From NCBI RefSeq assembly GCF_003334785.1, contig NZ_QOWV01000008.1: a stretch of 64,000 bases of DNA. One strand, given 5' to 3'. Source of the DNA: Escherichia coli. GTDB lineage: Bacteria; Pseudomonadota; Gammaproteobacteria; Enterobacterales; Enterobacteriaceae. The notes beneath the pieces were generated by a model. The model was not told where the DNA came from, ran no database searches, and saw only the letters and a list, made by a program, of their open reading frames with translations. This document shows positions 2,082-64,000 of this stretch, in pieces (positions within the stretch are counted from its first letter, which is position 1; each line of letters begins with the position of its first letter). The translations under genes were made by a program, and so were the position numbers.

Positions 2082-3482
2082 TTACTGTTTTTCTGGTGGG
2101 AAAATCAGATTCAGCACGATGGCAGTAATACCGCCCGCGGCGATCCCGGAGGAGAGCAGGTTTTTCAGCCATTCAGGGGCAAACTGCAAAATCAGCGGCT
2201 GCTGAGACACGCCCAGACCAACCGCCAGCGACAGCGCGATAATCAGAATCGCCCGACGGTTCAGCGGCTCACGAGAAACGATACGCACACCGGAGGCGGC
2301 GATGGTGCCAAACATTACAAGCGTTGCGCCGCCCAGAACCGGTTCTGGAATGTGTTGTACAAAACCGCTCACTGCCGGGAACAGACCCAGCACGATCAAC
2401 ATCAGCGCGACGACAAAACCGACATAGCGGCTGGCAACACCAGTCAACTGGATCACTCCGTTGTTTTGCCCGAAGCAGGAGTTCGGGAAGGTGTTAAACA
2501 CCGCCGAAACAAACGAGTTCAGGCCGTTTGCCAGCACGCCACCTTTCAGGCGTTTCATGTACAGCGGACCGGACACTGGCTGTTCGGAAACGTCAGAGGT
2601 CGCCGTGATATCGCCAATGGTTTCCAGCGAAGTGATCATAAAGACCAGCATCAGCGGCAGCAGCAGACTCCATTCAATGCCAAGACCGTAATAGAGCGGC
2701 GTTGGCACCATAATCAGTTCTTGCGTCATCGGTTCGTTGCTTTCTGGCAACATGCCCATAAACCACGCCAGCGCATATCCGGCCGCCATCGCAATCACCA
2801 GTGAGGCCACGCGTAAGTAAGGGTTACGTTGACGGTTAAGCAGGATAATTAAGGCTAAGACCACGCCTGCCAGCAGCAGATTTTTCGGTGCGCCGAAGGT
2901 GTTATCGCTCATGGCTGCGTAACCGCCGCCAATGGACGTTAACCCAACCTGAATTAGCGACAGGCCGATAATCATCACCACAACGCCAGAAACCAGCGGC
3001 GTAATAATGCGGCGCGCCAGATGCAGAACGCGGGAGATCACCATCTCGGTGCAACTTGCCAGCATCAACGTGCCGAACAAAGCCGCCATCATGGTAGGAA
3101 CATCAGCACCACCGGTTTTCAGCGCGGTACCGCCCATAATCAGCGGGGCAACAAAGTTGAAGCTGGTGCCCTGAATAGACAACAGCCCGGAGCCAACCGG
3201 ACCCCAGGCCTTAATTTGAATAATCGATGCCACACCGGAGGCAAACAGCGACATACTAATAATGTGTTGCGTGTCTTGTGCCGGTAAACCCAGCGCCTGG
3301 CAGATTAATAGCGCTGGCGTGATCACCGCAACGAACATCGCCAGCAGATGCTGACAGGCGGCAAACAGGGTTTGAGGAAGCGGCGGACGATCTTCAAGAC
3401 GGTAAATCAGTTCGCTGTTTTGAGTCTGCGCAACCGGTTGCGCATTTTCTGACTCGAGGGTGGAAACAGACATCGAAAACAA
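2082..3482 (-). CDS. xanP: Xanthine permease (NCS2 family)
   Basis: 466-aa polytopic membrane protein, recognised as XanP/YicE. Confidence 0.9.
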
Positions 3483-3752
3483 TCCCGTGGTAGCAAAGCG
3501 GGCATTTTAGCTGACCGAAAGAGAAAAGCAAACGTTTGCCACATCCTCATCTAAATATTTAAATGAGATAAATGCACTTTTTTATATAACTTTTGGTATT
3601 TTTCTGCTTAAAATCCATGCCATTTGTTCATTAACAGCTGAGAATTTGACCCAGGAAAGCATAACTCGATACCCGTCATAGTTCATGAAGTTGCCACTGC
3701 GCGATGAAGTATGACGAGTATGAAAGAGTGATGCGGATACAAAGGAGTAACT

Positions 3753-4958
3753 ATGTTTCATCTCGATACTTTAGCAACGCTTGTTGCCGCAACGCTGACG
3801 TTGCTGCTCGGGCGTAAGTTGGTCCATTCCGTCTCCTTTTTGAAGAAATACACCATACCGGAACCTGTTGCGGGTGGTTTGTTGGTGGCGCTGGCGCTAC
3901 TAGTACTGAAAAAAAGCATGGGCTGGGAAGTCAACTTTGATATGTCCCTGCGCGATCCGTTAATGCTGGCTTTCTTCGCCACCATTGGCCTGAACGCCAA
4001 CATTGCCAGTTTGCGTGCCGGTGGGCGTGTGGTTGGCATCTTCTTGATTGTGGTTGTTGGTCTGTTGGTGATGCAAAATGCCATTGGCATTGGTATGGCT
4101 AGCCTGTTAGGGCTTGATCCGCTGATGGGGCTGTTGGCCGGTTCTATTACGCTTTCCGGCGGTCACGGTACGGGCGCTGCGTGGAGTAAATTGTTCATTG
4201 AACGTTATGGCTTCACCAATGCGACGGAAGTGGCGATGGCCTGTGCAACGTTCGGTCTGGTGCTGGGCGGCTTGATTGGCGGTCCGGTGGCGCGCTATCT
4301 GGTGAAACACTCCACCACGCCGAACGGTATTCCGGATGACCAGGAAGTCCCGACGGCGTTTGAAAAGCCGGATGTGGGCCGCATGATCACCTCGTTGGTG
4401 CTGATTGAAACTATCGCGCTGATTGCTATCTGCCTGACGGTGGGGAAAATTGTTGCGCAACTTTTGGCTGGCACTGCTTTTGAACTGCCGACCTTCGTCT
4501 GTGTACTGTTTGTTGGCGTGATTCTGAGCAACGGTCTGTCAATAATGGGCTTTTACCGCGTCTTTGAGCGTGCGGTATCCGTGCTGGGTAACGTAAGCTT
4601 GTCGTTGTTCCTGGCGATGGCGTTGATGGGGCTGAAACTGTGGGAGCTGGCTTCGCTGGCGCTGCCGATGCTGGCGATTCTGGTGGTACAGACCATCTTC
4701 ATGGCGTTGTATGCCATCTTCGTTACCTGGCGCATGATGGGCAAAAACTACGATGCGGCAGTGCTGGCTGCGGGTCACTGTGGTTTTGGCCTCGGTGCAA
4801 CGCCAACGGCAATCGCCAACATGCAGGCGATCACTGAACGCTTTGGCCCGTCGCACATGGCGTTTTTGGTGGTGCCGATGGTCGGTGCGTTCTTTATCGA
4901 TATCGTCAATGCGCTGGTAATTAAGTTGTATTTGATGTTGCCGATTTTTGCCGGTTAA
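3753..4958 (+). CDS. gltS: Sodium/glutamate symporter
   Basis: 401-aa membrane protein, MFHLDTLATLVAATLTLLLG..., divergent from xanP. Confidence 0.9.
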   Translation: MFHLDTLATLVAATLTLLLGRKLVHSVSFLKKYTIPEPVAGGLLVALALLVLKKSMGWEVNFDMSLRDPLMLAFFATIGLNANIASLRAGGRVVGIFLIVVVGLLVMQNAIGIGMASLLGLDPLMGLLAGSITLSGGHGTGAAWSKLFIERYGFTNATEVAMACATFGLVLGGLIGGPVARYLVKHSTTPNGIPDDQEVPTAFEKPDVGRMITSLVLIETIALIAICLTVGKIVAQLLAGTAFELPTFVCVLFVGVILSNGLSIMGFYRVFERAVSVLGNVSLSLFLAMALMGLKLWELASLALPMLAILVVQTIFMALYAIFVTWRMMGKNYDAAVLAAGHCGFGLGATPTAIANMQAITERFGPSHMAFLVVPMVGAFFIDIVNALVIKLYLMLPIFAG

Positions 4959-5123
4959 CCGATGAAGCGGCGGTAGAAGTGCCGCCGCAACAAAGACAAA
5001 TGCCTGATACGCTTCGCTTATCAAGCCTGCGTATTGATTCATAATTTATTGAATTTGTAGGGTGAATCGCATCCGGCAGGAAGGTAGGGTAACCTGAAAT
5101 GGCGGTCTTCTCACTGCCGCCTT

Positions 5124-7205
5124 TTACGCATTCGAGTAACGTTCTGTCTCCGGCATCCAGCGTTCTATCAAGGCTTTTGCCTGTTGTGGGTAACGTTCGT
5201 GAATATGTCGCGCCAGGCGCTGAACTTCCGGGATCATCGCCTGATCGCGCAGTAAATCCGCCACTTTAAATTCAGCATTACCCGTCTGACGCGTGCCTAA
5301 CAATTCGCCAGGGCCGCGAATCTCCAGATCTTTTTGCGCAATCACAAAACCGTCGTTACTGTCGCGCAGCACTTGCAGGCGAATTTGCGCCGTTTTAGAA
5401 AGCGGCGTTTTGTAGAGCAGCACGCAGTGAGAAGCCACCGCGCCACGACCTACGCGCCCGCGCAGCTGGTGTAACTGCGCCAGACCCAGACGCTCAGGGT
5501 TTTCGATAATCATCAGGCTGGCGTTAGGCACATCAACACCGACTTCAATAACGGTAGTGGCAACCAGCAGATGTAGCTCACCTTGTTTAAACGACGCCAT
5601 CACCGCCTGTTTCTCGGCTGGTTTCATCCGCCCGTGTACCAGGCCAACATTCAATTCTGGTAGCGCCAGTTTCAACTCTTCCCAGGTAGCTTCCGCCGCC
5701 TGCGCTTCCAGTAACTCTGACTCTTCAATCAACGTACAAACCCAGTACGCCTGACGACCTTCAGTTATGCAGGCGTGGCGCACGCGGTCAATGATGTCGG
5801 TACGGCGGGTATCAGGAATAGCGACCGTAGTCACTGGCGTGCGGCCTGGCGGCAGCTCATCTATCACCGAGGTATCGAGATCGGCATACGCCGTCATTGC
5901 CAGCGTGCGGGGGATCGGCGTGGCGGTCATGATCAACTGATGCGGATGGAAGCCCTGCTGCTGGCCTTTCTCCCACAATGCCAGACGCTGATGCACGCCA
6001 AAACGATGCTGTTCGTCGATAATCACCAGCGCCAGGCCGTTAAACTGCACCTGTTCCTGGAAGATGGCGTGTGTACCGACAATCATCTGCACCTGACCGC
6101 TGGCGATGGCTTCCTGCTGAGACAGTCGCGCTTTGCCTTTCTGCTTACCGGCGAGCCAGCCCACTTTGATACCGAGCGGTGCAAACCAGTTGCGGAAGTT
6201 ATTGGCGTGCTGCTCGGCGAGTAATTCGGTTGGTGCCATCAGTGCCACCTGTTTGCCGTGGGCAATCGCACGCAGCGCGGCGAGGGCGGCGACCAGCGTT
6301 TTACCGGAACCTACATCGCCCTGTACCAGGCGCATCATCGGCACATCCAGCGCCATATCATGCTCGATCTCCGCCACTACGCGTGCCTGTGCGCCCGTTG
6401 GCTTGAACGGTAAGGCGGCGAGGAGTTTATTTTTCAGCGTGTCATTGGCGCTCAGCGGCTGGGCATGAAAACGCTGTGCTCCGGCACGTAAGGCTAACAT
6501 GCTGAGGTTGTGCGCCAGCAGTTCTTCCAGAATCAGACGACGTTGCGCCGGATGCTGCCCGGTTTCCAGATCGCTAAGCTGTAGCGTCGGTGGCGGGCGG
6601 TGCAAAGTGCGCAACGCTTCCGGTAGCGTCATCATTCCTTGTGACAGTTCCGGCGGCAGGAGTTCTTCAATGGCGCAGGTGTCGAGCAGATCCAGCGCCT
6701 GGTCGGTTAATTTACGCAGCGTGGCCTGCTTTACGCCTTCCGTTGTTGGATAAACCGGCGTGAGCGTTTCCTGTAATTCTGGCGTGCTGAGATCGCCCTG
6801 CACGCGGTATTCCGGGTGGATCATCTCCGCACCATATTTACCGCGCTTTGCTTCGCCATAAGCCAGTACACGGCGGCCCGTCGCCAGGCTATTTTTCATT
6901 GCCGCGCTGAAATTGAAAAAGCGCATGGTGAGGATGCCGGAACCGTCGCTGATCTGGCAGGTCATCATCCGCCGACCGCCGAAGGAGATATTGCAGTTCA
7001 GCACTTCGCCTTCCACCGTGGCATAAACGCCCGGCAGTAGTTCTCCGATGGGGTAGAGATGGGTGCGATCTTCGTAGCGCAGGGGAAGGTGTAAGAGTAA
7101 ATCCTGCACGGTATGCAGGTTGATTTTCGCCAGTTTGTTACTAAGCGCTGCGCCAACGCCCGTTAGGGAACTGAGCGGGACAGTATCTAACAGGCGGCCT
7201 TTCAT
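5124..7205 (-). CDS. recG: ATP-dependent DNA helicase RecG
   Basis: Walker A GDVGSGKT and helicase motifs; start placed at MKGRLLD (693 aa) rather than the upstream in-frame Met. Confidence 0.95.
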   Translation of the reverse strand: MKGRLLDTVPLSSLTGVGAALSNKLAKINLHTVQDLLLHLPLRYEDRTHLYPIGELLPGVYATVEGEVLNCNISFGGRRMMTCQISDGSGILTMRFFNFSAAMKNSLATGRRVLAYGEAKRGKYGAEMIHPEYRVQGDLSTPELQETLTPVYPTTEGVKQATLRKLTDQALDLLDTCAIEELLPPELSQGMMTLPEALRTLHRPPPTLQLSDLETGQHPAQRRLILEELLAHNLSMLALRAGAQRFHAQPLSANDTLKNKLLAALPFKPTGAQARVVAEIEHDMALDVPMMRLVQGDVGSGKTLVAALAALRAIAHGKQVALMAPTELLAEQHANNFRNWFAPLGIKVGWLAGKQKGKARLSQQEAIASGQVQMIVGTHAIFQEQVQFNGLALVIIDEQHRFGVHQRLALWEKGQQQGFHPHQLIMTATPIPRTLAMTAYADLDTSVIDELPPGRTPVTTVAIPDTRRTDIIDRVRHACITEGRQAYWVCTLIEESELLEAQAAEATWEELKLALPELNVGLVHGRMKPAEKQAVMASFKQGELHLLVATTVIEVGVDVPNASLMIIENPERLGLAQLHQLRGRVGRGAVASHCVLLYKTPLSKTAQIRLQVLRDSNDGFVIAQKDLEIRGPGELLGTRQTGNAEFKVADLLRDQAMIPEVQRLARHIHERYPQQAKALIERWMPETERYSNA

Positions 7206-7210
7206 GGCGC

Positions 7211-7900
7211 TTACCCTGCGGCCTGCATGGTGGACCACCAGTCAGCATCAGCTTCGATCTCGCCTTGCTGATTGACGTGGGGGTAAGGCAGGCCTTTGCG
7301 TTTTGCGACTTTCGCCAGCACCGGATAGCCGCCTTCAAACAACAGGCGTTGTTGCTCTGCTTCCGGCAACATGCTGTTTTCACGCAGGTACATGCCTGCA
7401 TTTTGCCGCTGACGCTGGGCTTCGTAAAGAATGAGGGCTGAGGCAACGGAAACATTCAGCGACTGCACCATGCCGATCATCGGAATGATGATGTCCTGAT
7501 CCGCCAGGGCCAATGCTTCCTGCGTGATGCCCGTTTTCTCCTGTCCCATCAAAATGCAGGTCGGGCGAGTGTAATCAATTTCGCGGAAATCGACAGCATT
7601 ATCAGAAAGATGGGTTGCCAGAATCTGCATGCCCTGGCCTTTCAGATGAGCGACGGCATCGCCAATGGTGCGGTGTGTTTTCACCTGTACCCAGCTGTTA
7701 CTACCCGCCGCTGCCGAAGCCATGGTGCGCATCCGGCTACCAGGCCAGACGGCGTGAACTTCATGTACGCCAACGGCATCTGCGGTACGAATAATCGCAG
7801 AAACGTTATGAGGTTTGTGGACCTGCTCCATGCAGACGGTCAGGTCAGGCTGCCGCCTGGCGAGCATTTCGCAGATGCGTGCATAACGTGTTGGGTTCAT
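7211..7900 (-). CDS. trmH: tRNA (Gm18) 2'-O-methyltransferase
   Basis: 229 aa SpoU-family protein; 5-bp gap to recG. Confidence 0.9.
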   Translation of the reverse strand: MNPTRYARICEMLARRQPDLTVCMEQVHKPHNVSAIIRTADAVGVHEVHAVWPGSRMRTMASAAAGSNSWVQVKTHRTIGDAVAHLKGQGMQILATHLSDNAVDFREIDYTRPTCILMGQEKTGITQEALALADQDIIIPMIGMVQSLNVSVASALILYEAQRQRQNAGMYLRENSMLPEAEQQRLLFEGGYPVLAKVAKRKGLPYPHVNQQGEIEADADWWSTMQAAG

Positions 7901-7906
7901 AAAACA

Positions 7907-10015
7907 TTAATTTCGGTTTCGGGTGACTTTAATCACGTCTGGCATCACGCGGATTTTGCGCATGATATTCGCCAGATGCACACGGTCACGAGCGGTCAGA
8001 CGAATAAAGGCGCTGTAGACGCGACCATCTTTCTCTTCCGTATTCAAACTTTGAATATTCGAGGTCGTGGTGTTAATTGCCGCCGTCAGGTTTGCCAGCG
8101 CACCCTGATGATTGAACATCTCCACCTTGATTTCGGTGATGAATTCCTGCGCCGTCTCTTTATCCCATTCCACAGCCATAAACTTCTCTGGCTCTTTCTG
8201 GTAGCCACGGATGTTACGGCAGGATTCATGGTGGATCACCAGACCTTTACCGGGGCTGACGTGGGCGATAATCGGGTCGCCAGGAATAGGGCGGCAGCAT
8301 TTCGCAAAGGTGATCAGCACGCCATCGGCACCTTTAATTGGCAGATGTCCGTGACTTTGGGTTGCCGGTGGAATGGAGGCGTCCCCATGTTGTAGATTTT
8401 TCGCGACCACCACGCTCATTGCGTTACCAAGGCCGATTTCAGCCAGCAGATCGTCAAGCGTTGCCAGCTTCATGCGATCCAGCTCGCGCTGAATATTTTC
8501 CTGCGGGATTTCATTCAGCTTACGGCTACCACCCAAAGCATGGTTGAGCAGACGACGGCCCAGGCTTACAGAATCATCACGCTTGAGGTTTTTCAGCAAC
8601 TGACGAATTTTGGCGCGCGCTTTTGAGCTAACGACAAAGTTCAGCCACGCGGCATTCGGGCGAGCGCCCGGTGCGGTAATGATTTCAACGGTTTGACCGC
8701 TGGTAAGCGGCTGCGACAGCGGGTAAGGCTGGCGGTCAACGCGTGCGCCCACGCAGGCATGACCGATATCGGTATGCACTGCATAAGCGAAGTCGACGGG
8801 CGTTGCACCGGCAGGCAGCTCGACAATGCGCCCTTCCGGTGTGAAAACGTAAATCTCATCCGGGAAGAGATCGGATTTAACGCTCTCGATAAATTCAAAC
8901 GAACTACCGGCGCTCTGTTGCAGCTCCAGCAGGCTTTGCATCCAGCGCTGGGCGCGGATTTGTGCGGTAGTACTGGTTTCGCCGTGCTCTTTATAAGCCC
9001 AGTGCGCGGCAACACCCATCTCCGCCATCTGATCCATATCTTCGGTACGGATCTGGACCTCAACCGGCACGCCGTGCGGGCCAATCATCGAGGTGTGCAA
9101 AGACTGATAGCCGTTCGCTTTTGGAATGGCGATATAGTCTTTCACGCGGCCCGGACGCGGCTTGTACAGGCTGTGCATCTGGCCCAGCACGCGATAACAG
9201 GTGTCAGAATCATTGACGATCACGCGGAAAGCGTAGATGTCCATGATTGAGTGAAAACGCTGCTCTTTGAGCACCATTTTGCAGTAAATCGAATAAAGAT
9301 GCTTTTCGCGACCACTGACGCGGCACGGTATTCCCGCTTCCTGCAAACGCCCTTCGATTTCAGAAAGAATCTTCTGGATCATCTCTTTACGGTTGCCGCG
9401 CGCGGCTTTCACCACTTCTTTGATTACGCGATAACGGTTGGGATACAGCGCCTCAAAACCCAGCTCTTCGAGTTCGGTTTTAATGTGGTGGATACCTAAA
9501 CGGTGCGCCAGCGGGCTGTAAATTTCGAGAGTTTCACGGGCGATGCGGCGACGTTTGTCCGGGCGAAGTGAGCCCAGCGTGCGCATGTTGTGGGTACGGT
9601 CGGCAAGTTTGATGAGGATGACGCGGATATCCTGCACCATCGCCATAATCATCTTGCGAAAGTTTTCGGCCTGCGCCTCTTTCTTATCGCGGAACTTGAG
9701 TTTATCAAGTTTCGACACCCCCTCTACCAGCTCGGCGACGCTTTTACCAAAAAGCTGTTCCATATCCTGGTAGGTGGCGGGAGTATCTTCAATCACGTCA
9801 TGCAGCAGCGCCGCCATCAGCGTTTCATAGTCGAGTTTCATCTCGGCCAGAATGCAGGCAACCGCTACCGGGTGCGTGATATAGGGTTCACCGCTTGAAC
9901 GTGTTTGCCCCTCGTGAGCATCACGTGCAACGAGATACGCCTGCCGCAGACGCTTGATTTGGTCTTCCGGCAGGTAGGTTTGAATCAGTTGATTCAGGCT
10001 TTCAAACAGATACAA
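7907..10015 (-). CDS. spoT: Bifunctional (p)ppGpp synthetase/hydrolase SpoT
   Basis: 702 aa with HD domain; start codon is TTG (minus strand 10015..10013). Confidence 0.95.
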   Translation of the reverse strand: MYLFESLNQLIQTYLPEDQIKRLRQAYLVARDAHEGQTRSSGEPYITHPVAVACILAEMKLDYETLMAALLHDVIEDTPATYQDMEQLFGKSVAELVEGVSKLDKLKFRDKKEAQAENFRKMIMAMVQDIRVILIKLADRTHNMRTLGSLRPDKRRRIARETLEIYSPLAHRLGIHHIKTELEELGFEALYPNRYRVIKEVVKAARGNRKEMIQKILSEIEGRLQEAGIPCRVSGREKHLYSIYCKMVLKEQRFHSIMDIYAFRVIVNDSDTCYRVLGQMHSLYKPRPGRVKDYIAIPKANGYQSLHTSMIGPHGVPVEVQIRTEDMDQMAEMGVAAHWAYKEHGETSTTAQIRAQRWMQSLLELQQSAGSSFEFIESVKSDLFPDEIYVFTPEGRIVELPAGATPVDFAYAVHTDIGHACVGARVDRQPYPLSQPLTSGQTVEIITAPGARPNAAWLNFVVSSKARAKIRQLLKNLKRDDSVSLGRRLLNHALGGSRKLNEIPQENIQRELDRMKLATLDDLLAEIGLGNAMSVVVAKNLQHGDASIPPATQSHGHLPIKGADGVLITFAKCCRPIPGDPIIAHVSPGKGLVIHHESCRNIRGYQKEPEKFMAVEWDKETAQEFITEIKVEMFNHQGALANLTAAINTTTSNIQSLNTEEKDGRVYSAFIRLTARDRVHLANIMRKIRVMPDVIKVTRNRN

Positions 10016-59223: not shown

Positions 59224-59363
59224 AAAAACACCCCTTCTTATGTTTGCTGTCGCGCAGGCTGGAAGCCCGAGGTTTTTTGTTAATGTGGCGGCAGAGGTAG
59301 CCGGACCTTGTAGATACTGCGAAATCTGGCACTGAATCGGTTAACTGTCCAGTCGACGGCCTT

Positions 59364-59546
59364 TTGTGTGATATCAATCACATAAATATAGGGGGTAGAG
59401 AGGTAATTGACGTGACGTTCATCACAAAACGCTTGTGTAAAAAAGCAACAAGGCGGCGATTTTCGCTAAAAATGGCATTTAAATGTGAGTAGTGTCACAT
59501 TTTTGTTTTGATGGTTTGTTGAATCTTTGTGATCTGAATCACAAGA
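59364..59546. promoter_or_regulatory. Array of CRP binding sites in the mtlA promoter
   Basis: Three perfect TGTGA-N6-TCACA sites at 59367-59382, 59484-59499 and 59528-59543, plus near-perfect CGTGA-N6-TCACA at 59411-59426. Confidence 0.65.
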
Positions 59547-59759
59547 TATTTTCTTACGGCGTTCACCTGATGTGATCTACAGCATGTTATGCCTTCGTCA
59601 TACAATCGTTATGTAACTAAGCAACTCATCACCTCTAAAAATTATTCTTTGGTGTTATGGCGAGAATCGCGAACCCGGATTATTGTCAAAATATCAGCCT
59701 GACTCCCTTCTGGCTGCCAGCCCAAAAACAACACTGATAAACGTGAATCCGAGGCAGAT

Positions 59760-60122
59760 ATGTTTCTAAACTATTTCGCGTTGGGAGTGCTGATCTTCGT
59801 CTTTCTGGTGATTTTTTATGGAATCATCGCGATACATGACATCCCTTATCTGATTGCCAAAAAGCGCAACCATCCCCATGCCGACGCTATTCATACGGCG
59901 GGCTGGGTGAGCCTGTTTACTCTGCATGTTATCTGGCCGTTTCTGTGGATCTGGGCGACGCTCTATCAACCGGAGCGTGGCTGGGGTATGCAGTCACATG
60001 TTGCGTCGCAGGAGAAAGCGACTGACCCGGAAATCGCCGCACTTTCTGACCGAATTTCCCGGCTGGAGCATCAACTCGCCGCCGAGAAAAAGACTGACTA
60101 TTCCACGTTCCCGGAGATCTAA
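59760..60122 (+). CDS. yibI: Inner membrane protein YibI
   Basis: 120 aa [29 protein letters not shown]... Confidence 0.8.
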
Positions 60123-60124
60123 TT

Positions 60125-61261
60125 ATGGATCTATTGATTGTTTTAACTTACGTGGCGCTGGCGTGGGCGGTCTTTAAAATCTTCCGCATTCCGGTAAATC
60201 AGTGGACGCTGGCGACGGCGGCGCTGGGAGGCGTGTTTCTGGTGAGTGGTTTGATTTTGTTGATGAACTACAACCACCCTTACACTTTTACCGCGCAAAA
60301 GGCAGTGATAGCGATCCCTATCACGCCACAGGTGACGGGAATTGTTACTGAAGTCACTGACAAGAATAATCAGCTTATTCAAAAGGGCGAGGTGCTTTTT
60401 AAGCTCGACCCGGTTCGTTACCAGGCGCGAGTTGACAGACTTCAGGCTGACCTGATGACGGCGACGCATAATATAAAGACGCTGCGTGCGCAGCTCACTG
60501 AAGCGCAGGCCAACACCACCCAGGTTTCAGCGGAGCGCGACCGTCTGTTTAAAAATTATCAACGTTACTTGAAAGGCAGCCAGGCGGCGGTGAATCCGTT
60601 CTCGGAACGTGACATCGACGATGCGCGGCAAAATTTCCTCGCGCAGGATGCGCTGGTGAAAGGCTCGGTGGCGGAGCAGGCGCAGATCCAGAGCCAGCTC
60701 GACAGTATGGTTAACGGCGAGCAATCGCAGATTGTGAGCTTAAGAGCGCAACTTACTGAAGCAAAATATAACCTTGAGCAGACTGTCATTCGCGCGCCGA
60801 GCAATGGCTACGTTACTCAGGTACTGATCCGCCCAGGTACATACGCAGCTGCCTTGCCGCTGCGTCCGGTGATGGTCTTCATCCCCGAGCAAAAACGGCA
60901 AATTGTCGCCCAATTTCGGCAAAACTCGCTGTTACGTCTGAAACCCGGCGATGATGCGGAAGTGGTGTTTAACGCGCTACCTGGGCAGGTGTTTCACGGC
61001 AAACTGACTAGTATTTTACCTGTCGTGCCAGGCGGTTCTTATCAGGCGCAGGGGGTATTGCAATCATTAACGGTCGTGCCCGGCACGGACGGTGTGCTGG
61101 GAACCATTGAACTGGACCCTAACGATGATATCGATGCCTTACCCGACGGCATCTACGCCCAGGTGGCGGTTTACTCCGACCATTTCAGCCATGTTTCGGT
61201 GATGCGGAAAGTGCTGCTAAGAATGACCAGCTGGATGCATTATCTTTATTTGGATCATTGA
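60125..61261 (+). CDS. yibH: HlyD-family membrane fusion-type protein YibH
   Basis: 378 aa with N-terminal TM and coiled-coil region; 2-bp gap after yibI. Confidence 0.85.
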
Positions 61262-61823
61262 GGGGGAGGGGGGAGATTATGGAACTTTGCTCCTTGTAAG
61301 GACTAATTATTTTTGCATATTACTTCATTAGCTGCGATGATTTTTCTTTAATATTCATTATGTTAATAAGTTCTGGATGAGTGTGCTCTCATTGGATTTT
61401 TTATCCGTCTTGTTCTGCCGCAGGATGAGACTATACATCGTCGAGATCGCAATGATGATATGAGTTGTTCCTCCTGCGACGGCTCTAATCAAAAAAGAGC
61501 AGGAGTGCTTTTCCATCTATTGCGATGATGGCTTTATTATCTGAAGGATGACAGTCACATTTAAAAAATATTTAATCTATAGATCACAATGTAGGGTCAT
61601 GGAATATATGTATACAACTATTTTCTTCTTCACTTTTAATTATCGTATTCATTATAAAACTAAGTTAAAAAAACTCCTGGAGAGTGAGTTATTAATATAT
61701 TTTTAAATAAAATTAAGTTATCATTCATCGATGCACTTTATAGAATCATCAATGGCCATAATAGTACTATTAACTCTCAATTTTATATTTTTATCATCAC
61801 TACAAATATTAACTGAATTTATA

Positions 61824-62242
61824 TCAATGATTTTTTTTATTCTTATCTTTTATTTTATTTACTGTTTCAATGCAATCAGCGGCAAGTTGGAGTGGATTTA
61901 GATTTTTCAGATATGGTCTTATGATCTTTCCCTTACTTAATAAATAGCATGTATAGGATTCGGAAAGTCCAGCATCTATTTTGTACCTCCTTATATTAGA
62001 TAAGGATGTGAGAAATTCCTTGTTATCATTCGCAGCCATATATGCCAGTCCGAGTTCAGCCTCTGCGGCCTTACAGGCAAAATAGCTTAGTGAACACGCT
62101 TTTCGTCCCTCTTTAGTACTGGCTGATATTAGTGCCCATAATATTGCTTTGTCTGCCAAATCTAACTCTCTCTGAAATTGTCTTGCAGTAACTGCACTCG
62201 CAGAAATAGAGAAAAAAATACAATTGTTAATAACCTTGCCAT
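61824..62242 (-). pseudogene. Secreted Sel1-like repeat protein (putative Rhs immunity-type), apparently frameshifted in a homopolymer
   Basis: ATG at 62242 opens MARLLTIVFF then stops after 26 codons; the 111-aa Sel1-like body (61824-62159) is in the frame 2 downstream; one extra A in the A7 run at 62212-62218 would restore a signal peptide plus body. Confidence 0.5.
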
Positions 62243-62541
62243 ATTTTTTAGTCCGTAACTGTTAATGTGCTATCTGGCTCTGAAAATATTAACTCATTTA
62301 ATTTTTGCATGTCATTAGATAAACCAGTTATACAACCCTCGGAACAGAATCGAGGTCCTAAAGACGGACCAAAAGCGTTTAAACAACTATGTATTGAAAA
62401 TCCATTGCGATTATAAGTTCCTGTATTAACTGACGGTACTAATCGTATGCCGTCAGGTTTTCTATTGCTTGCTCCCGGGTCATTAACATTCCAACTCCAT
62501 AGGCCTTGAGGTATTGGCCATCTATTTATAAATGTGTACAA

Positions 62542-62860
62542 CGGGGATTATTTTTACATTGCATATTATTACCAGAAGCGACTGGAATACTAAGCACATC
62601 ATAAAAATTATCATCACATGGTATATCTGAAACACACGAAAGCATACCTAAAGTTATGCTGTATAAACAGGTGGCTAATCCCAAGGGGATCGATTCCAGA
62701 AATCGGGTTCAACGGATACTGATAAAAATTCCACCTACCTTCCAGCCCAATCGGAGCCTGAGTGTTATACCGCCCCTGCTGCGGTTAATGTTACCGATAA
62801 TAGTTATAGTACAGCCCTGATTCATCATCATACTACTGCTGCGGCAGTCTGATGAACTAT
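62542..62860 (-). pseudogene. Degenerate Rhs core-end remnant with short tip
   Basis: Minus-strand translation gives [43 protein letters not shown], a stop-riddled copy of the Rhs core C-terminus. Confidence 0.5.
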
Positions 62861-62865
62861 TGCTT

Positions 62866-63327
62866 TTACGGATTCTCCTTATTCTTCCTTCTATCCATTC
62901 GCTTTAGCTTTTTGAGCTCTTGAAGTTTGCTCTTTGCATCAATATTACCGTTATTTACAGCGAATTCCATCCAATAAATAGCTCTATTCAAATTATAATA
63001 TTCTGATAATGTTGGATTTGTATCTGATAAAAAGACCCCATAATTAAACTGCGCTGTAACATTCCCCTGAGATGCTGATCTTTCCAAGAATCGCAATTGT
63101 TTGTAAATGTTATTTTTAGTAAAGCAGTAATATTGATATAGTCGAAATGATGCCTCTGAATCACCATGTTGTGATTTATACTTCAGTTTCATCAACTTTT
63201 CTTCACTTAAATCATAGGTCATTGCTGTAGACCCCATCATACTTTCGTTTTGTTTTATTTTCACATCAGCACCATGCAATTGACAAATAAAAGAGAAATA
63301 AAAAAATAGTAACAAGCATGCTTTCAT
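62866..63327 (-). CDS. yibG: Sel1-like repeat protein with signal peptide, YibG-like; putative immunity partner of the upstream Rhs tip
   Basis: 153 aa; N-terminal MKACLLLFFYFSFICQLHGA; starts 11 bp after the Rhs tip stop. Confidence 0.6.
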   Translation of the reverse strand: MKACLLLFFYFSFICQLHGADVKIKQNESMMGSTAMTYDLSEEKLMKLKYKSQHGDSEASFRLYQYYCFTKNNIYKQLRFLERSASQGNVTAQFNYGVFLSDTNPTLSEYYNLNRAIYWMEFAVNNGNIDAKSKLQELKKLKRMDRRKNKENP

Positions 63328-63338
63328 ACATCTACAAC

Positions 63339-64000
63339 CTATCTTATATCACTGGGTTTTTCTGGCGTACCTTGCATATTAGAAATGGGGTGCCCAGATG
63401 GCCCATATGTTATCCAATTACCAAGGTCTTTTGTTGTTATAGCCATTAGATCCTTATTTGAATTAAGGTTCGTTGGTGCTGTTAGCACTGTATCCATTTT
63501 TAACTTACCATTAGTTCCTCGCCCCCACCACGTCCATAGCGTGTCAGGTCCTATTACATTTGTATGTAACTCTTTAGCTAATTGGCTAGCAAATGAATTT
63601 TGTCCTTTACCTGTATTACAAGAAAATAACCAAACTGTCATCCCATCTTTATAATTCCCATCAAATTTAATTAGATATGCTAGATCTTTAGCTGTCATGA
63701 TACTGCGCGTTGCGGATTCAATAGATGTGGGGGTACCATGCCCCCCGATTGTGAAAACGCCTGGGATATTAATCTCATCAGCTACAGAATGGATAAGATC
63801 ACTTTCGGGGTATAAATTTATATCAACCAAACCTTGCGGATCTACATTTATGACCGGATTCAACGGATACTGATAAAAATTCCATCCCCCCTTCAGCCCA
63901 ATCGGATCCTGAGTGATATACCGCCCCTGCAGCGGGTCATAATAGCGGTGGCGGTTGTAATACAGGCCGGACTCCTCATCATACTGCTGCCCCGGCAGGC
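63339..64000 (-). CDS. Rhs-family protein C-terminal region (core end plus variable toxin tip), 5' end beyond the window; YibJ-like orphan
   Basis: Minus-strand translation of 63864-64000 gives ...[48 protein letters not shown] in frame with the 174-aa tip. Confidence 0.7.

Follow-up and report, generated by a model that had tools for sequence, protein, structure and literature searches.

Introduction

Incoming C-terminal tips of rhs genes displace the incumbent tip and produce arrays of dissociated tips, which have no start codons and carry frameshifts and premature stops (Jackson 2009, BMC Genomics 10:584, PMC2935791). Orphan rhs-CT/immunity modules were described in equivalent terms by Poole et al. 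(2011, PLoS Genet 7:e1002217, PMC3150448). In E. coli, clade I rhs loci are generally free of dissociated tips, and the arrays belong mainly to clades II-V (Jackson 2009, PMC2935791). For one class of toxin tip an immunity partner is known: Imm57 is listed as a partner of the Tox-LD-peptidase, and RHS repeats are among the architectures of that toxin (Zhang et al. 2012, Biol Direct 7:18, PMC3482391).

In this study, we analysed a stretch of 64,000 nt of E. coli DNA (contig NZ_QOWV01000008.1; hereafter the window), whose last 4.7 kb, on the minus strand, hold part of the Rhs element between yibF and yibH. The locus shares many traits with the published orphan tips: a partial core that keeps the full conserved core end, an AT-rich tip and an immunity gene, co-oriented downstream; no start codon; stops and frameshifts; and a shared tip that appears to have been displaced independently across strains. 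The interval yibF-yibH is position 10 of Jackson's survey and forms an exception to the clade I generalisation. Two differences from Jackson's arrays were seen: the core piece here is unusually short (~195 nt), and the window core is 23-29% diverged, whereas the core repeats in those arrays are near-identical.

The characterised Tlde1 of Salmonella is a stand-alone effector and is not known as an Rhs tip. The intact allele of the tip studied here matches the Tlde1_dom profile (PF10908, formerly DUF2778) across the His and Ser-x-Gly-Cys region and, like the Tox-LD-peptidase/Imm57 pairs, is fused to RHS sequence and followed by Imm57 (1.9e-47). Unlike the Tlde1 effectors of type VI secretion systems (T6SS), the window copy is a pseudogene, and its family is predicted from a modest Pfam match.

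Results

Annotation of the locus

Positions 59300-64000 of the window are colinear with K-12 MG1655; the two differ by 7 SNPs over 4701 nt, and the interval 62248-62865 has no SNP. The K-12 order is rhsA, yibA, yibJ (pseudogene), yibG, yibS (pseudogene), yibW (pseudogene), yibV (b4615), yibU (pseudogene), yibH, with gene names taken from the RefSeq record; of this array, the two distal modules are visible within the window. The features discussed below are as follows, with curated K-12 coordinates mapped onto the window for yibG, yibS, yibW, yibV and yibU.

63339..64000, minus strand: intact Rhs core end with a YibJ-type tip, running out of the window (context only)
62866..63327, minus strand: yibG, a Sel1/TPR-like ORF annotated as 'sel1 repeat family protein' (context only)
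62866..62868, minus strand: TAA stop codon of yibG, which is a His-to-stop change in the ancestral frame of the fossil
62690..62884, minus strand: fossil Rhs core end, terminal ~65 codons, found by blastn and making up most of K-12 yibS
62614-62865, minus strand: yibS (b4650), K-12 pseudogene
62248-62612, minus strand: yibW (b4651), K-12 pseudogene
62248..62689, minus strand: remnant of a Tlde1-like tip (L,D-transpeptidase fold), comprising the 3' end of yibS and yibW, aligned to intact alleles
61721..62242, minus strand: Imm57 immunity gene with frameshifts, the partner of the dead toxin (PGAP, 'Imm57 family immunity protein, frameshifted')
61824-62159, minus strand: yibV, the largest surviving ORF of the Imm57 remnant, 111 aa, 'PF15596 family protein' in K-12
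61358..61556, minus strand: yibU, frameshifted remnant of an ISAs1-family (ISEc1) transposase, residues ~96-159 (context only)

PGAP also marks a pseudogene at 62614-62832 ('RHS repeat-associated core domain-containing protein; internal stop; missing N-terminus'). The K-12 genes yibS, yibW and yibV are identical in sequence to the window feature, and the K-12 record treats the first two as separate pseudogenes and gives no product name. A literature search on yibS and yibW found no E. coli paper naming either. The relic itself is thus already known: K-12 has it annotated as two pseudogenes, and relics of this type were explained in 2009. What we show here is that yibS and yibW together represent one decayed Rhs core end with a Tlde1-like tip, and that yibV is the remnant of its Imm57 partner.

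The core-end fossil

We compared the fossil with the rest of the window and with K-12 rhsA by blastn. The core end at 63855-63998 matched at 80.6% identity along 144 nt (E 3e-34) and rhsA nt 3531-3713 at 76.5% along 183 nt (E 2e-35); within the window there was no further match with E < 0.4. The alignment to the intact core end was ungapped across the core end, with a mean column identity of 81% over the whole alignment. Translated from 62865 on the minus strand, the fossil is clearly a homologue of the intact core end at 63864-64000, and it finishes in a PxxxxDPxGL-type boundary, which matches the 3' end of the Rhs core (TIGR03696). The intact core end at the window edge scored 3.7e-31 (107.9 bits) with NCBIfam RHS_core, 6.1e-21 with Rhs_assc_core and 74.7 bits with TIGR03696 against a cut-off of 32.5; its module at 63339..64000 is either a core fragment, as in K-12 yibJ, or, as in JKHS016, the 3'-terminal part of a full-length rhs.

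A codon table of the ancestral frame revealed five stops, at 62866-62868, 62857-62859, 62833-62835, 62791-62793 and 62785-62787, together with one in-frame 3-nt deletion. The initial annotation had described a decayed Rhs core end on the minus strand with at least three stops and had proposed aligning 62690-62860 to 63864-64000 and to Rhs core ends; both the decay and a significant nucleotide similarity are borne out by these comparisons. No continuous ORF connects the fossil to a YD-repeat shell, given the five stops and the abrupt start of homology at 62884. The fossil is a pseudogene fragment, not a functional member of the Rhs family.

The GC content was 44.6% in the fossil core and 56.2% in the intact core end. 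Identity to the resident core ends was 71% in 62770-62884 and 82-88% in 62697-62769, so the fossil is not a near-identical repeat of the core of the upstream main gene. We read this low identity as a sign of age or of foreign origin of the piece, which leaves the structural diagnosis unaffected. A search of Rfam over 61000-64000, with E values up to 1, returned no match, so no known RNA family explains the region.

The junction with yibG

Homology to rhsA begins at 62884, within the last six codons of yibG. Between 62863 and 62884, 16 of 22 bases match in register, a level that was reached at 4 of 127,956 window positions (3e-5 per position), and the C-terminal NKENP of YibG aligns in frame to NEENP(H) of the core. 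The last six codons of yibG and its TAA stop thus appear to be encoded by the fossil, in the ancestral frame of the fossil. From its position, yibG is presumed to be the immunity gene of the module that displaced the fossil.

The Tlde1-like toxin remnant

We aligned the tip to the intact alleles of BroCaecum-55 and THO-010 and mapped its lesions codon by codon against an intact allele. The results showed that the tip is a full Tlde1-like toxin domain of ~150 codons, which two frameshifts have divided between reading frames. Immediately behind DPLG, at 62689/62690, one nucleotide is inserted (+1); a 9-nt deletion after 62575 took away one of the copies of a GGTAATAAT repeat; the loss of one nucleotide after 62529 (-1) restored the original frame; and a Gly-to-Trp change at 62518-62520 lies in the NRGPIP motif, where Gly is kept in 10 of 10 intact homologues aligned there. 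Programmed frameshifting or readthrough was considered and rejected in view of the five stops, two frameshifts in opposite directions, the deletion and the substitution in a conserved motif.

The 52-aa ORF ending at 62526 is therefore merely the middle of the toxin, and the 97-aa ORF at 62248-62541 is the remainder, in which the codons of the His and Ser-x-Gly-Cys motifs typical of L,D-transpeptidase folds survive. The initial annotation had spoken of a short tip and had placed the feature at 62542-62860, which is essentially all of yibS plus the first 70 nt of yibW. Neither description holds: the domain runs on to 62248 across two frameshifts, and the 5' start lies ~24 nt further upstream, at 62884.

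The intact THO-010 orphan matched Pfam Tlde1_dom at 1.8e-6, and the window sequence, once its frame was corrected, matched it at 3.4e-3 and YkuD weakly (0.14); an NCBIfam scan of the frame-joined toxin gave no match, and the assignment came from Pfam. The Tlde1 profile, the His and the Ser-x-Gly-Cys motif were all present, and His153 and Cys172 were invariant among 12 homologues. The ancestry of the tip is accordingly described as Tlde1-like, that is, a predicted peptidoglycan L,D-transpeptidase toxin, and the Pfam match behind this prediction is modest. A protein search returned fusions of Rhs to Tlde1, 45-60% identical, from Paraburkholderia, Ralstonia and Acidobacteria. No intact ancestor of the window's own tip allele was found among 5.8 billion proteins, the best full-length match being 82% identical.

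One window-type allele of 131 aa from a Logan assembly, 98% identical, reads NNPRCTFINRWPIPQG in one open frame across the site of the -1 deletion. Because this allele is open there, at least one variant appears to have lesions around 62529 that differ from those of the window.

The Imm57 remnant and the distal edge

The remnant downstream of the toxin has its frame broken twice, by the loss of one nucleotide (-1) after 62219 and by a +1 insertion within a run of A after 61839. Its intact counterpart in THO-010 matched Pfam PF15596 over the full model length (1.9e-47), and in intact alleles the gene starts a few nucleotides past the toxin stop, so that profile and position agree on Imm57. The initial annotation had placed the fossil between two Sel1-like genes. 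This stands for the upstream neighbour, yibG; the downstream one is the frameshifted Imm57 gene, and a Pfam scan of the intact downstream protein found Imm57 and a weak DUF7922 match and no Sel1/TPR match. An NCBIfam scan of the 111-aa yibV ORF gave no match.

Next to it, yibU was recovered by tblastn with the ISEc1 transposase of BroCaecum-55 (E 2.5e-12, in two pieces); it forms the distal edge of the Rhs element, adjoining yibH. Within and just beyond yibU, the minus strand at 61323-61442 has 14 mismatches in 120 nt relative to THO-010, and its flanks are ~1% diverged.

Strain states at yibF-yibH

The locus was then read in other strains, which carry it in the following states.

State 0, PE164 (E105 and F2_81 are annotated alike): one full-length 1392-aa Rhs with the Tlde1 tip, Imm57, then yibH; no orphans
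State 1, JKHS016 and O157:H7: full-length Rhs with a YibJ-type tip, yibG, the fossil, dead Tlde1 and dead Imm57
State 2, K-12: rhsA-yibA added in front, yibJ left as a second orphan
Separate route, THO-010: Tlde1 tip attached straight to a yibA-associated core fragment, the YibJ/yibG layer being absent

In PE164, the tip of the full-length Rhs (locus 3282-7460) is 100% identical to the THO-010 allele, which in turn is ~89% identical to that of the window. The tip that is an orphan in the window thus sits on a full-length rhs in another strain. A partial core with tip and immunity gene, co-oriented downstream of a main rhs with another tip, was found in K-12, JKHS016 and THO-010. The THO-010 orphan is an open ORF of 301 codons, in which a core fragment (Pfam RHS 4.8e-15) is joined at DPLG to Tlde1, followed by an intact Imm57. 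Since the core fragment joined to the Tlde1 tip there is yibA-associated and lacks the YibJ/yibG layer, the same ancestral tip appears to have been displaced independently in THO-010. The initial annotation had seen in the region a footprint of tip displacement that left stacked orphan modules, and had suggested comparing orphan arrays across strains. The core of that reading holds up: the states in PE164, JKHS016, O157:H7, K-12 and THO-010 support displacement, as does the published account of such arrays (PMC2935791).

Two further observations were made in these strains. BroCaecum-55 has intact genes annotated by PGAP as 'tlde1 domain-containing protein' and 'Imm57 family immunity protein', and at locus 7852-8988 ISEc1 is inserted in the core piece of its Tlde1 orphan, which is cut at CTGCAGGGGCGG with most of the core piece cut off. 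At PE164 locus 7466-7986, Imm57 is annotated as frameshifted despite the full-length Rhs with a Tlde1 tip; if this is no sequencing error, it would be an armed toxin without an immunity gene, which is odd.

Prevalence of the fossil

Of 5426 complete E. coli genomes, 3486 carry the 211-nt fossil at 99% identity or higher, and only three have it at lower identity. Among the matches listed, it adjoins yibG in every record that carries it whole. Because the sequence is this common at this identity with essentially no intermediates, the fossil is an old, fixed relic and no assembly error; an assembly or sequencing artefact was rejected on the ground that 3486 genomes carry the same sequence.

A fossil-specific 31-mer was absent across 100,044 species-representative genomes, the E. 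coli representative evidently being without the fossil. A 29-mer of the tip hit only two contigs, both of 258-330 nt in Amycolatopsis orientalis drafts. These contigs (NZ_ASJB01000019.1, 330 nt; NZ_ASXG01000044.1, 258 nt) share ~99% identity with window 62139-62454 (yibW/yibV), and their likeliest source is E. coli DNA contaminating the drafts.

Mosaic divergence of the relic

We measured divergence from the intact THO-010 sequence along the relic. It was 31% in 62785-62884, 13.8% in 62393-62784 and 1.6% below 62392 through the Imm57 remnant, and it stayed low from there through yibH, except for a local rise at ~61323-61442. In a change-point test, which was post hoc, the first change point gained 51.5 log-likelihood units and the second a further 7.3. 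The dN/dS ratios (Nei-Gojobori) were 0.10 for the 5' core, 0.24 for the 3' core, 0.23 for the tip and 0.35 for Imm57, and the corresponding dS values were ~1.6, ~0.38, ~0.28 and ~0.03. Changes private to the window occupied 4 of 486 sites (0.8%) in Imm57 versus 39 of 432 (9%) in the toxin.

Non-uniform divergence together with dN/dS of 0.1-0.35 means that simple decay in place is insufficient, and mosaic ancestry or later recombination is needed. It looks as if the toxin is not a simple decayed copy of the sampled intact allele and as if much of its divergence accrued under selection, as a distinct allele. The drop at ~62392 points to a recombination breakpoint inside the C-terminal third of the toxin; either the relic or the intact THO-010 allele would then be a recombinant mosaic. 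The low private divergence of Imm57 is compatible both with longer retention as orphan immunity and with recent recombination.

The extra divergence of the first ~100 nt, and the stops there, could be accounted for in two ways, by arrival with the YibJ/yibG module or by faster AT-biased decay. According to the first, the core at 62785-62884 was never resident but came with the YibJ-tip/yibG module, with a crossover near 62784 that made the fossil a chimaera; this would refine the displacement account. The step from 31% to 13.8% at ~62784, where the second change point falls, agrees with it, as do the location of all five stops 5' of that point and a synonymous divergence near saturation in 62785-62884 (pS 0.67, vs 0.30 and 0.23 further 3'). 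A single crossover with a circular intermediate predicts exactly such a chimaera in the published model (PMC2935791), and the constant company of yibG in the whole-fossil records among the matches listed fits as well. However, the segment is only ~100 nt long and was delimited by that post hoc test; the changes private to the window in the 5' core run 22:4 in favour of GC-to-AT, which also fits a GC-rich stretch that decayed faster because mutation is AT-biased; and no copy of yibG with its core piece was found outside the present context. In E. coli, the fossil, yibG and the YibJ-type tip are nearly always found together. We therefore regard a donor origin of this segment as a tentative refinement that has perhaps a third of the weight.

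Discussion

Taken as a whole, the feature is best explained as the oldest, most distal and dead module of the yibF-yibH Rhs element, stranded by displacement of C-terminal tips, a reading to which we assign a probability of roughly 0.88. The ancestral rhs at yibF-yibH would have ended in a Tlde1-like L,D-transpeptidase toxin followed by Imm57. An incoming module, consisting of a short core 3' end, a YibJ-type tip and yibG, would then have recombined into the conserved core end, so that the main gene gained a new tip and the old one was pushed downstream, keeping ~195 nt of core but neither a start codon nor a delivery domain. A further module (the RhsA tip and yibA) may later have displaced the YibJ tip likewise in K-12-like strains. 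Once stranded, the module would have decayed: its core collected five stops, its toxin lost 9 nt and was frameshifted twice, and the immunity gene was also frameshifted at two places. What we observed directly are the homology, the lesions, the intact alleles and the states of the strains, and the order of events and the recombination mechanism are what we infer.

The older annotation view, in which a second complete rhs once stood downstream and lost its 5' part by deletion without any displacement, is improbable. Deletion relics of rhs genes do exist in E. coli (PMC2935791), and the ISAs1-family remnant and the IS insertions show that the array is prone to rearrangement. Against this, the core piece begins precisely where the preceding immunity-like gene ends and is co-oriented with it; all other modules of the array are built alike, yibJ' for example starting ~30 nt after yibA; the single rhs of PE164 at this locus carries the Tlde1 tip; and no other rhs 5' sequence lies between yibG and yibH.

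The best-supported reading is that the region would make no Rhs protein and is inert DNA, because it has no start and no delivery domain, contains five stops and two frameshifts, has lost a conserved residue, and adjoins an immunity gene broken at both ends; we infer that any residual function has been lost. That the module is still active, with the 111-aa YibV protecting against Tlde1-type toxins of competitors or the tip recombining back onto the main rhs as orphans of Salmonella have been shown to do, is very improbable: private changes are far fewer in the immunity region than in the toxin, K-12 curators keep yibV as a CDS, and orphan modules are functional elsewhere (PMC3150448; PMC7043789), but YibV lacks the hydrophobic N-terminal segment and ~38 C-terminal residues of intact Imm57, a toxin with two frameshifts, a 9-nt deletion and a Gly-to-Trp change would not regain activity by recombination, and the core homology is merely ~195 nt at 77-81% identity.

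A weaker form of lasting relevance is also unlikely, though slightly less so: Imm57 may have been kept as orphan immunity, with YibV partly protective, or selection on yibG may hold part of the fossil. The fossil supplies the last six codons and the stop of yibG, so that this part would be held by selection on yibG; and if the former were true, truncated YibV might partly protect against Tlde1-type attack long after the death of the toxin.

Beyond correct annotation, the value of these findings is small. The three divergence classes within one relic are a caution against dating such fossils by overall identity. For the displacement of Rhs tips, the locus offers a clean, species-wide case in the bacterial genome that has been studied best, and the earlier stages still live on in other strains.
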